Source of the DNA: Vicinamibacterales bacterium | Lineage (GTDB): Bacteria > Acidobacteriota > Vicinamibacteria > Vicinamibacterales > SCN-69-37 | Reading direction: 5' to 3' | Assembly: GCA_035550595.1 (NCBI GenBank) | Contig: DASZOV010000138.1 | Location: 245-64,244 of the forward strand | DNA length: 64,000 nucleotides | In this document: piece by piece, positions 5,547 through 8,372 of the stretch | Position numbering within the stretch: position 1 is the first letter of the stretch | Layout of the letters: the number at the start of each line of letters is the position of its first letter | Notes under the pieces: model-generated | Seen by the model: only the letters and a program-made list of their open reading frames with translations | What the model was told of the DNA's origin: nothing | Database searches by the model: none | Program-made: the position numbers and the translations under genes

Positions 5547-5621
5547 GCGGGAATAACTCAGTGGTAGAGTGCGACCTTGCCAAGGTCGAAGTCGCGGGTT
5601 CGAATCCCGTTTCCCGCTCCA
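5547..5621 (+). tRNA. tRNA-Gly (anticodon GCC), CCA encoded
   Basis: Manual cloverleaf: acceptor GCGGGAA/TTCCCGC, D stem ACTC/GAGT, anticodon stem CGACC/GGTCG with loop TTGCCAA, T arm GCGGG-TTCGAAT-CCCGT. Confidence 0.9.
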
Positions 5622-5702: not shown

Positions 5703-5776
5703 GGCGCCGTCGCCAAGCGGTAAGGCAGAGGTCTGCAAAACCTCCATCCCCGGTTCAATTCCGGGCGGCGCCTCCA
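5703..5776 (+). tRNA. tRNA-Cys (anticodon GCA), CCA encoded
   Basis: Acceptor GGCGCCG/CGGCGCC, anticodon stem GAGGT/ACCTC with loop CTGCAAA, T arm CCCGG-TTCAATT-CCGGG. Followed by CTTTTT. Confidence 0.9.
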
Positions 5777-6093: not shown

Positions 6094-6546
6094 TCAACGT
6101 GCCGACAGGCGGACCGCGATCTTGGACGACGCCAACCAGCGCCTCAGGTGGCCGGCGATATCCAGGGCAATTCGGTCGAACGCACGCTGCTGCTCGCCCT
6201 CGCTGCCGTCCACGGCGGCCGGGTCTGGAAAGCTCCAGTGAAGGCGCGCCGGGCCGCCTGGGAACACCGGACACGATTCGGCGGCGTGGTCGCACACGGT
6301 GATGACGTAGTCGAAATGCTGACCGATGTAGCGGTCGAGCGTCTTCGGGAACAGGTCGTCACTGCCGATGTTGAACTGGCGCGCGAGCGCGAGTTTTGCC
6401 ATCGGGTGGACTTCCGGTCGCGGATGCGTGCCCGCACTGTGCGATTCGGCACGGCCATTCGAGAGATGACGAAGGAGGGCTTCGGCCATCTGCGAACGAG
6501 CCGAGTTGCCGGTGCAAAGGAACAGGACGCGCAGCGGTGAACTCAT
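6094..6546 (-). CDS. arsC: arsenate reductase, LMW-PTP/thioredoxin-coupled type
   Basis: MSSPLRVLFLCTGNSARSQMAEALL carries the CX5R P-loop, and the downstream VITVCDHAAESCP carries the Cys pair. Its ATG (6546-6544) overlaps the TGA of the upstream MIP gene (ATGA). Confidence 0.85.
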   Translation of the reverse strand: MSSPLRVLFLCTGNSARSQMAEALLRHLSNGRAESHSAGTHPRPEVHPMAKLALARQFNIGSDDLFPKTLDRYIGQHFDYVITVCDHAAESCPVFPGGPARLHWSFPDPAAVDGSEGEQQRAFDRIALDIAGHLRRWLASSKIAVRLSAR

Positions 6547-7220
6547 CGGGCCGTCTCCGGGTCTGATGTGAGCAACCAGTGCAAGACGAGGACAGCCGCA
6601 CCCGCGCCGACAGACTGCCCGAGCAGGAACGACGGCACGTCGGCCGGCCGAATGCCGGCGAACGTGTGGGTCGCCGCCCGCGCCAGCGTGACGGCCGGAT
6701 TGGCGAACGACGTGGAACTGGTGAACCAATACGCGCCCGCGATGAACGCGCCGACCGCGATGGCCGTGTGTGACGAACGAGCCGCCGCCGATAGACCGAT
6801 GATGAGCAGTAACCCGAACGTGGCCACGGCTTCGGCAACCGTCTGGGCTGCGCCTGACCGGGTGTGATCGGACCAGGCGAACACCGGCTCGCCGAACATG
6901 AGATGCGCGACCGCGACGCCGACGAAGGCGCCGACGAACTGCGCGGTGACGTAGGGCCACACGTCCGCCGCCGGCAATTTGCCGCGTAGCCGCATGAGCA
7001 TCGTGACCCACGGATTGAAGTGCGCGCCGCTGATAGGGCCGACCGCAAGGATCAAGGCGGCCAGCGTCGTGGCCGTCGCCATCGTGTTCGCCAGGAGCGC
7101 GAGTGCGGCGTCGCCGGCGGCGAGGTGGTCGGCCATGATGCCCGAGCCGACAATCGCCGTCAGCAACAGGCTCGTGCCGAGGGCTTCGGCGACGGCGCGA
7201 CGACCGATGCTCAGCAGCAT
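6543..7220 (-). CDS. MIP-family channel (aquaglyceroporin-like, probable arsenite channel)
   Basis: GAHFNPWVT and FANPAVTLAR (NPx boxes), six hydrophobic segments, and an N-terminus MLLSIGRRAVAEALGTSLLL typical of MIP starts. Start taken at ATG 7220, not at the ORF-track 7505. Confidence 0.8.
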   Translation of the reverse strand: MLLSIGRRAVAEALGTSLLLTAIVGSGIMADHLAAGDAALALLANTMATATTLAALILAVGPISGAHFNPWVTMLMRLRGKLPAADVWPYVTAQFVGAFVGVAVAHLMFGEPVFAWSDHTRSGAAQTVAEAVATFGLLLIIGLSAAARSSHTAIAVGAFIAGAYWFTSSTSFANPAVTLARAATHTFAGIRPADVPSFLLGQSVGAGAAVLVLHWLLTSDPETAR

Positions 7221-7315
7221 CCCGAATCGCAACGGCAGCAGCCAGGCCTGCCACAGCAGATGTCGACGCTTCCGCGCGCCACGCGAACGGTCTTCTTCGA
7301 ATTGGCCTGGCTCAT
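7211..7315 (-). CDS. candidate 34-aa cysteine-rich micro-ORF (MSQANSKKTVRVARGSVDICCGRPGCCRCDSGCC), first cistron of the ars operon
   Basis: ATG 7315-7313 is preceded by GGAGG (7326-7322) at 6-nt spacing. 7 of the last 15 residues are Cys. The stop at 7213-7211 overlaps the MIP ATG by 10 nt. It is below the ORF-track length cutoff. Confidence 0.4.
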   Translation of the reverse strand: MSQANSKKTVRVARGSVDICCGRPGCCRCDSGCC

Positions 7316-7329
7316 GGGGCACCTCCGTT

Positions 7330-7349
7330 ATATCTGCCTTTGCAGATAT
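7330..7349. promoter_or_regulatory. perfect inverted repeat ATATCTGC-N4-GCAGATAT, candidate ArsR operator
   Basis: Located in the 76-bp arsR / ars-operon divergent intergenic region, 4 nt upstream of the minus-strand SD. Confidence 0.5.
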
Positions 7350-7354
7350 GGACA

Positions 7355-7384
7355 ACGATACGGGCCGTAGTCTATATTTGTCAA
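7355..7384 (-). promoter_or_regulatory. candidate sigma70-type promoter of the minus-strand ars operon (TTGACA-N18-TATCGT), overlapping a possible arsR -10 (TATATT, 7373-7378, + strand)
   Basis: Hexamers read on the minus strand: -35 at 7384-7379, -10 at 7360-7355. The predicted start falls at the edge of the 7330-7349 palindrome. Confidence 0.35.
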
Positions 7385-7391
7385 GGCGCAT

Positions 7392-7781
7392 ATGAGTCGC
7401 GAGCTTCAGACGGTTGAGCAGGTGTTCAAGGCACTCGCCGACCCGACACGCATCCGCATCATTGGGTTGCTGCTGAGCGGCGAGGTCTGCGTGTGCCACA
7501 TCCACGAGAGCTTGGATATTCCGCAGTCCAAGGCGTCACGGCATCTCGCCTATTTGCGGCGAACCGGGATGGTCGCAGCCGAGAAGCGCGGATTGTGGGT
7601 CCACTACCGCATGGCCGACATGCCGTCCGGTGTGGCGCAGACGCTGGTCGAAGCCGTGAAGCACTGCATCGGACATCTGCCGGAGGTGCGGAAGGACGGC
7701 GCGCGGCTCGAGAAGCGAACGGGATGCGGCGTGCCGTTACCGGGGGCCGTGATGCTGGACTGCTGCGCGCCGAAACGGTAG
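7392..7781 (+). CDS. arsR: ArsR/SmtB-family metalloregulator
   Basis: FKALADPTRIRIIGLLLSGEVCVCHIHESLDIPQSKASRHLAYLRRTGMV is a wHTH with a CVC motif. Extra C-terminal cysteines (GCG...DCC). Confidence 0.85.
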   Translation: MSRELQTVEQVFKALADPTRIRIIGLLLSGEVCVCHIHESLDIPQSKASRHLAYLRRTGMVAAEKRGLWVHYRMADMPSGVAQTLVEAVKHCIGHLPEVRKDGARLEKRTGCGVPLPGAVMLDCCAPKR

Positions 7782-8030
7782 GGGGCCGCGGTTCTTGACG
7801 GCCGCGCCGACGTGCGCGGACGACCGCCGCGTCGGTTCATTTCCGCGGCACGCCCACTATGACGGCGCGTGCGGTTGCCGGGCAGCCCGTCGGTCCCGTG
7901 TTGGCCGTACGCGTCTCGGAAATCTCCACGCTCCGGTCGGGATTTTTCCTAGCGGCGACGTTCGCCGCAGGAAACGTGCGTGCAGGACATCCGGCACGAC
8001 GTGTGCAGTGGATGCGGGCGAGAGAACGCT

Positions 8031-8372
8031 ATGCGCACCATCCCGCGGCACGAGTGGACCTCCTATTTCGAACAGCTCTCGGCAACGCTCACCGGTACAC
8101 GCGTCGAGGTGGAAGCGACCTCGCTGGATCTCGGTGACCAGATCGTTGCCGAGTGGCTCCCGTTGCTCGGTATCACCTACGACGCCAAGGACGATCTCCT
8201 CGACGTGGCGCTCGGCGGCGAAGACCATCTCACGCACCTGATTCGCCATCCCGTCCGCATCGACGTGACCGAGGAGGCGCACGAGGTCCGTGGTCTCGCC
8301 GTGTCGACACCGGACGGCGTTCAAGTGCTGCGGTTCAAGGACCCGCTGCGCCTCGCGGCGCCGCAATCGTGA
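8031..8372 (+). CDS. DUF5335-like hypothetical protein
   Basis: MRTIPRHEWTSYFEQLS...VEVEATSLDLGDQIVAEWLPLLGITYDAKDDLLDVAL...HLIRHPVRIDV resembles the DUF5335 pattern as I recall it. Start chosen at the internal ATG. Confidence 0.55.
   Translation: MRTIPRHEWTSYFEQLSATLTGTRVEVEATSLDLGDQIVAEWLPLLGITYDAKDDLLDVALGGEDHLTHLIRHPVRIDVTEEAHEVRGLAVSTPDGVQVLRFKDPLRLAAPQS

Follow-up and report, generated by a model that had tools for sequence, protein, structure and literature searches.

A cysteine-rich micro-ORF at the head of an acidobacterial ars operon is probably a remnant of arsM that may deliver ribosomes to a channel gene

The ars locus and its first cistron

The window, by which we mean the whole 64,000-nucleotide stretch of Vicinamibacterales DNA that was analysed, contains an arsenic-resistance locus in which arsR is oriented divergently to an operon comprising a micro-ORF, a channel gene and arsC. 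The features of this locus are the following:

6094..6546, minus strand: arsC, coding for a thioredoxin-type (LMW-PTPase family) arsenate reductase, with its start overlapping the MIP stop
6543..7220, minus strand: gene for an MIP/aquaglyceroporin-like channel of 225 aa (Pfam PF00230, E 2.8e-22, match from residue 6)
7211..7315, minus strand: micro-ORF of 34 codons, from the ORF listing; its kinship with arsM, set out below, is one of positional homology
7322..7326, minus strand: Shine-Dalgarno sequence GGAGG, 6 nt ahead of the micro-ORF ATG and the counterpart of the arsM Shine-Dalgarno sequence of relatives
7330..7349, not assigned to a strand: perfect inverted repeat ATATCTGC-N4-GCAGATAT, with 8-nt arms that are 100% complementary, situated after the -10 element and before the Shine-Dalgarno sequence
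7349-7378: divergent promoter-like site for the arsR side, from promoter scoring
7355..7384, minus strand: sigma-70-like promoter of the ars operon (TTGACA, 18 nt, TATCGT; 10 of 12 consensus matches)
7392..7781, plus strand: arsR, divergent, coding for 129 aa that include a CVC motif and cysteines at the C-terminus (Pfam/NCBIfam)

The original prediction had drawn attention to a Cys-rich frame at this site, and it is present exactly as described there: the minus strand reads GGAGG (7326..7322), the spacer TGCCCC, an ATG (7315..7313), MSQANSKKTVRVARGSVDICCGRPGCCRCDSGCC and the stop TGA (7213..7211), with seven cysteines among the final 15 residues in the form of three CC pairs and one lone Cys. 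The arrangement of the cistrons likewise stands. The stop of the micro-ORF and the ATG of the MIP gene (7220..7218) lie in a 10-nt overlap; arsC in turn begins within the MIP stop, in an ATGA (6546..6543); and the micro-ORF is the first cistron behind a presumably ArsR-controlled promoter, in a geometry that would allow its translation to be coupled to that of the MIP gene and, further on, of arsC. No Shine-Dalgarno sequence precedes the MIP ATG, which has only a GGG immediately before it, unlike arsC, which is preceded by a GGAG of its own.

The G/C-rich third codon positions, which had been adduced as a sign of coding, are confirmed at 74%; however, this is weak coding evidence, being below the 78-86% of the neighbouring genes and slightly above the overall G+C of the window (67%). 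The pattern over the three codon positions is atypical (GC1/GC2/GC3 of 0.47/0.65/0.74 in the micro-ORF versus about 0.66/0.50/0.82 in real genes here), and its length is unremarkable, as 108 ORFs of at least 25 aa occur within 8 kb of window DNA. Hence, composition and openness of the frame prove nothing by themselves. The part that is not chance is the strong Shine-Dalgarno sequence with an ATG at the place where relatives open their first cistron, together with the stop sitting on the MIP start. The 34-codon micro-ORF is a real reading frame, and it is probably translated.

One alternative would dispense with the micro-ORF altogether by taking the region as an N-terminal extension of the channel, begun at an in-frame codon further upstream. 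Indeed, no stop interrupts the MIP frame in the region (ORF 6543..7505), and it offers an in-frame TTG (7232) as well as GTG codons. However, the Pfam MIP match begins at residue 6 of the protein started from the ATG at 7220, the AE.LGT motif lies at residues 6-16 in nearly all of 120 homologs, and gene callers choose the equal ATG in the 99%-identical protein P0001; on these three grounds we rejected the extended channel, the possibility of which had been raised along with the micro-ORF. Further upstream, the frame would run antisense through the promoter and arsR, and in relatives arsM occupies the region in another frame. This makes the extension extremely improbable.

Several further observations concern the genes around the micro-ORF. 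The window ArsR combines the CVC motif of its DNA-binding region with C-terminal cysteines, but where relatives have TGCC...DCC it reads TGCG...DCC, with one Cys of the first pair lost. Across 11 near-identical metagenome contigs the MIP gene (6543-7220) differs by seven nonsynonymous changes (L14I, K81E, V104I, E111D, V128A, A183S and D194V) versus one synonymous change, a ratio unusual for a conserved channel. A DUF5335 gene follows arsR (7980-8372, plus strand); it is conserved there in all the near-identical contigs and missing from the ars loci of relatives wherever their contigs reach past arsR. On the other side, genes for tRNA-Gly(GCC) (5547-5621, plus) and tRNA-Cys(GCA) (5703-5776, plus) are found some 320-550 nt past the arsC end, on the strand opposite to that of arsC. 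This pair might mark the boundary of an island, and the closeness of tRNA-Cys to a Cys-rich ORF is probably a coincidence.

The same slot in relatives, and the two ends of ArsM

The micro-ORF peptide matches no Pfam or NCBIfam family. A phmmer search of 1.84 billion representative proteins gave one threshold match (E 7e-4, over a 12-residue stretch), which we took as spurious. In an exact-sequence look-up the window peptide was not on record, and the sole recorded peptide of this kind was that of the relative L027 (see below), as an unnamed singleton.

The window locus recurs almost unchanged across many soil and rhizosphere metagenomes, and beyond these the MIP proteins nearest to that of the window share 66-71% identity with it. 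In the closest relatives of the locus, a full arsM gene (272-281 aa) separates the divergent arsR from the MIP gene. Thus, L026 (MIP 71% identical), L030 and L033 have arsR, a divergent arsM of 272-279 aa and then the MIP gene, while in L034 arsM (280 aa) and the MIP gene stand behind a co-oriented arsR; the arsM stop overlaps the MIP start in all four of these loci. The nearest ArsR relatives (about 70% identical; L046, L048, L049 and L052) also adjoin arsM. Two loci instead carry a short ORF in the arsM slot: one of 35 codons in L027 (MIP 69% identical), MTRSTVQIVFRPPLVVHVANPEPKLIACCDPWCCR, and one of 31 codons with a GTG start in L045 (ArsR 71% identical), MSDTNRKLVTSSRAGVARTQAACGCGPGCCR. 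We refer to these two ORFs and the micro-ORF of the window as stubs. Finally, L028 and L029 (MIP 69% identical) have neither arsM nor a stub, and the MIP ATG stands directly behind the ancestral Shine-Dalgarno sequence. The sequence of this junction is GGAGACGATCATG (L028 382-472, and likewise L029), making this a third kind of locus left by the loss of arsM.

In the arsM-bearing L026 and L033, too, no Shine-Dalgarno sequence precedes the MIP start; L034 has a weak AGGA there. The overlap between the stop of the stub and the MIP start differs between the lineages: it is 10 nt in the window, 4 nt in L045 and, according to which start is used, 13 nt or more in L027. In the MIP tree the window and L027 are sisters (support 91/86), and the N-termini of their ArsR proteins are 94% identical. 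In the same tree L045 groups, on a long branch, with the arsM-bearing L033 (support 97/91), from which it follows that stubs may have arisen at least twice. Scans of genome and metagenome contig collections with the MIP protein returned only relatives of at most 62% identity with other gene orders (arsC, arsM or arsI upstream). Among more distant loci, the gene before the MIP gene in L003 and L016 codes for an ArsI-like glyoxalase-fold protein ending in a CC pair (...SSCCVA-stop, ...KCCAPRQ...); C-terminal vicinal cysteines thus recur in several ars enzymes encoded just ahead of the channel gene.

The control region is common to loci with arsM and loci with stubs. The element TTGACAAATATA is kept in L026, L027, L028, L030, L033 and L045, and it aligns, along with TATCGT and the inverted repeat, across the window and the loci of relatives. 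Homologous inverted repeats stand at the equal position in relatives, and that at 7330..7349 is presumed to be the operator to which ArsR would bind. In the aligned loci the distance from TATCG to the start of the first cistron is 44-48 nt, both for arsM and for the stubs. In one variant of the locus, L037 (a contig from SRR12170510), the site equal to window 7322-7326 reads AAAGG instead of GGAGG, which could be a true weakening of the Shine-Dalgarno sequence or an assembly error.

Within the micro-ORF, two segments were compared with ArsM:

7211..7234, minus strand: codons 28-35, R-C-D-S-G-C-C-stop, orthologous to the ArsM tail C-C-G-P-E-C-C-x-stop by junction alignment; its final 10 nt coincide with the opening 10 nt of the MIP gene
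7235..7261, minus strand: codons 19-27, I-C-C-G-R-P-G-C-C, from alignments to ArsM Cys motifs

At the junction the window reads CGT TGC GAT TCG GGA TGC TGC TGA, the arsM of L026 reads TGC TGT GGT CCG GAA TGC TGC CAC TGA, and the L027 stub reads TGC TGC GAT CCG TGG TGC TGC CGC TAG. The ArsM proteins of the clade end in ...FASAFIRAxKPxxCCGPECCx-stop, and 113 of 118 homologs have a CC-x2-5-CC-x0-3 ending (tails taken from L026 830-1648, L030 1441-2280, L033 1680-2504 and L034 1662-2504, and from the proteins P0122-P0241). Given this conservation, the tail is probably functional within ArsM; no function was described for it in the literature searched. Its final CC codons double as the MIP start (ATG CTG C..). 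An HMM of full-length ArsM places the window and L027 stubs on profile positions 258-276 of 276, i.e. the last 19, with HMMER E-values of 0.001-0.01 for the stubs at Z=1, and the window stub ranks fourth among 904 background ORF ends. A tblastn search with ArsM found no other arsM in the window and did not pick up the stub either. At the level of residues the homology between stub and ArsM is, then, statistically weak.

The second segment, codons 19-27, would be either the N-terminal Cys motif of ArsM (GGCCGG.C) or a duplicated copy of the tail. The N-terminal motif has the form ...AARGVxTGGCCGGxCGDP, and alignment with AS3MT structures (PDB 5evj) matches its CC to their first conserved Cys. 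The window VARGSVDICCG resembles AARGVETGGCCG, and the 31-aa stub of L045 has the length and layout of an ArsM N-terminus followed by CC and GPECCx. Tandem Repeats Finder detected no repeat, leaving the idea of a tandem duplication of the window tail without support. In order-preserving global alignments to predicted deletion products, 0-3 of 400 shuffles reach the observed score, which is mainly an effect of the C-terminal Cys cluster: when only the N-terminal part is shuffled, p is 0.06 for the window and 0.03 for L045, with no significance for L027. An HMM of the ArsM N-terminus against all three frames of the stubs likewise gave nothing significant. Since ArsM has similar CC motifs at both of its ends, the exact deletion junction cannot be fixed.

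The case for descent from arsM accordingly draws mostly on the position in the locus with its shared control region, the DNA-level alignment of the 3' end and the states found among relatives, all of which point to a remnant of that gene. The notion of an unrecognised peptide family consequently falls away: the micro-ORF appears to be built from the two ends of arsM, the gene that fills the slot in most of the nearest relatives. The original prediction's linking of the Cys cluster with arsenic was right in that the motif is truly an arsenic-linked one, but it belongs to the conserved C-terminal tail of ArsM.

Origin and role of the stub

With a probability of roughly 70%, we read the micro-ORF as the remnant of arsM after an internal deletion, now most likely a ribosome-delivery cistron with an inherited richness in Cys. 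The deletion would have taken about 240 codons of arsM, inclusive of the whole SAM-methyltransferase domain. Retained would be the arsM promoter, the ArsR operator, the Shine-Dalgarno site, the start codon and a few 5' codons on the one side, and on the other the last arsM codons, i.e. the conserved cysteine tail (CC-x3-CC), with a stop that already overlapped the MIP start ancestrally. A deletion between two similar TGCTGCGG(N)CC stretches may be the mechanism, as it would yield products of this kind. With such a deletion being in-frame, ribosomes loaded at the strong Shine-Dalgarno sequence would still terminate on the MIP start. In the ancestral operon the MIP gene would have been translated by coupling to arsM, and, with the MIP gene having no Shine-Dalgarno sequence, the stub most likely acts as the cistron that now delivers its ribosomes, be it via termination-reinitiation, unfolding of the mRNA around the MIP start or both. 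Under such a regime the channel would stay expressed only if ribosomes end at the MIP start, whether by means of an in-frame stub or by joining the MIP gene exactly to the Shine-Dalgarno sequence, as in L028. A repeated origin of stubs would fit a repeat-prone deletion combined with this survivorship filter, and the cysteines would be a legacy of ArsM rather than a product of selection. A caveat to coupling is the length of the overlap: it usually measures 4 nt, and longer ones, such as the 10 nt seen here, couple less well (PMC12548453). Searches of RNA runs, moreover, yielded no transcript evidence for this sequence.

The presence of stubs in three lineages, the placement of L045 and the rise to seven cysteines in the window, versus four in the ancestral tail, could also be read as selection for a Cys-rich peptide. 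In that case the remnant would have been adopted as a free thiol-rich peptide, which binds the As(III) made by ArsC and buffers it or hands it to the channel in the manner of a miniature ArsD or metallothionein. The Shine-Dalgarno sequence, the start codon, the open frame and the CC...CC cluster are kept in all three lineages, and the source of that cluster is the ArsM tail kept in nearly all homologs. The chemistry is established, too: As(III) is bound by vicinal thiols, as in the cysteines of ArsD and ArsM (PMC6138428). Nevertheless, several lines of evidence speak against adoption. First, the amino acids outside the tail are not conserved: between the window and L027 the identity by codon position is flat in the stub (0.41/0.38/0.41), as opposed to 0.93/0.99/0.54 in arsR and 0.75/0.82/0.53 in the MIP gene, and is no better than that at the synonymous sites of the neighbouring genes. 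Second, Cys21 (7253-7255) is Trp in 9 of the 11 near-identical contigs, making the sole stub change within the window's population a majority allele that removes a cysteine. Third, two of the three lineages no longer have an intact first CC pair, with CGC in L045 and RC at the orthologous pair of the window, while the last pair would be held anyway by its overlap with the MIP start. Fourth, L028 and L029 manage without the peptide, which is dispensable once the MIP start is placed behind the Shine-Dalgarno sequence. Fifth, there is the failure of the Pfam, NCBIfam and phmmer searches to reveal a family. In light of the flat codon-position identity, the change of Cys21, the degenerate first pair and the stub-less loci, these comparisons give no sign of selection on the peptide itself, and we consider its adoption unlikely.

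A more specific form of this idea holds that the two Cys-bearing ends of arsM were kept as a thiol peptide of 31-35 aa, with seven cysteines here, that passes ArsC-made As(III) to the adjacent channel. We regard it as quite unlikely; if true, such a peptide would be a minimal arsenic chaperone born of a gene remnant and arising more than once. What speaks for the metallothionein-like or chaperone peptide originally proposed is thus the thiol chemistry, with neither a family match nor conservation to go with it. As for conservation of the frame in orthologous loci, a 31-35-codon ORF does persist in three lineages, but its amino-acid sequence does not, Cys21 is polymorphic and the L028 lineage is without the ORF.

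Could the stub, then, be an inert relic, that is a pseudogene fragment without any role next to a MIP gene that initiates alone? Its divergence is at or above the neutral rate, a base-composition estimate for 67% G+C gives an open frame of 34 codons about half the time by chance, and one variant has the weakened AAAGG. Yet it is the stub that has a strong Shine-Dalgarno sequence at the ancestral site and the MIP gene that has none; the stop of the stub stays on or next to the MIP start in three lineages despite heavy divergence elsewhere; and the sole stub-less lineage has moved its MIP start directly behind that very Shine-Dalgarno sequence. On balance, a stub without any role seems improbable to us.

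A third possibility is that translation of the stub stalls or speeds up with the supply of As(III) or of Cys-tRNA, and in this way tunes the MIP gene and arsC. As first cistron, the stub is by its layout coupled to the MIP gene, its Cys codons cluster towards its 3' end near the MIP start, and a tRNA-Cys gene lies nearby, although the latter is probably fortuitous. However, the fold of the leader RNA is no more stable than that of shuffled sequences (z = -1.3) and contains no terminator or antiterminator structure, the number and spacing of the cysteines vary between lineages, and the locus is already under ArsR control. A 6-bp hairpin is predicted around the MIP AUG and, by our reading of the L026 junction sequence, is not conserved there. 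A sensing leader is accordingly very unlikely. The regulatory leader named in the original prediction survives loosely, inasmuch as an ORF that delivers ribosomes is the best-supported reading, but not as a sensing device, for which structural support is wanting.

Relation to known systems

The closest relationship is with ArsM/AS3MT itself, from whose gene the stub has the promoter, the operator, the Shine-Dalgarno sequence, the start position, the last codons and the stop on the MIP start. CmArsM has four conserved catalytic cysteines, Cys44, Cys72, Cys174 and Cys224 (PMC6138428). At most the first of these, as the N-terminal CC, is possibly kept in the stub, in which LGCGNP and the later cysteines (Cys72, Cys174 and Cys224) are deleted. 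The 34-aa product also has no SAM-binding class I methyltransferase domain (Pfam Methyltransf_11/25/31), whereas the ArsM proteins of relatives do match these families. The stub therefore cannot methylate arsenic. The comparison also brings to the fore the CCGPECC tail of ArsM, a widely conserved element whose codons run over the start of the gene that follows.

ArsD is a protein of about 120 aa with a thioredoxin fold and an As(III) site formed by Cys12, Cys13 and Cys18. The micro-ORF product shares with it vicinal cysteines and its origin in an ars operon; it differs in having neither sequence nor length similarity (34 aa, with no Pfam or NCBIfam match), and the operon codes for no ArsA partner. 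Bacterial metallothioneins are no closer: the peptide matches none of their families and its Cys spacing varies among the three stub lineages.

The concept of a short ORF that serves solely to bring ribosomes to a downstream gene coupled with it is a recognised one (PMC12548453). The window has the layout of such a system, with GGAGG, 6 nt and ATG opening a first cistron whose peptide is not conserved and whose stop overlaps by 10 nt a MIP ATG lacking a Shine-Dalgarno sequence; L027 and L045 are laid out similarly. It differs in that the origin of the ORF is traceable to a gene remnant, in that the overlap is 10 nt rather than the optimal 4 nt, and in that coupling is here read from the sequence. 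If our reading holds, the locus offers a traceable birth of a small ORF, in which an in-frame deletion of the first gene of an operon leaves a stub that is kept by the next gene's need for ribosomes. It also carries a warning for the discovery of micro-ORFs: an odd composition (seven Cys in 15 residues), a good Shine-Dalgarno sequence and a setting within an operon can each be the legacy of a dead gene.

Lastly, the operon as a whole resembles the arsR-aqpS-arsC type known from Sinorhizobium meliloti, with its channel AqpS (PMC6138428). In both, an MIP channel takes the place of ArsB/Acr3 and has ArsC as its partner, such that internal As(III) would exit via the channel. The difference lies in the history: the operon of this clade would ancestrally have begun with arsM, which the window has lost, leaving a stub, and soil bacteria of the clade appear to have repeatedly dropped arsM while keeping the channel and the reductase.
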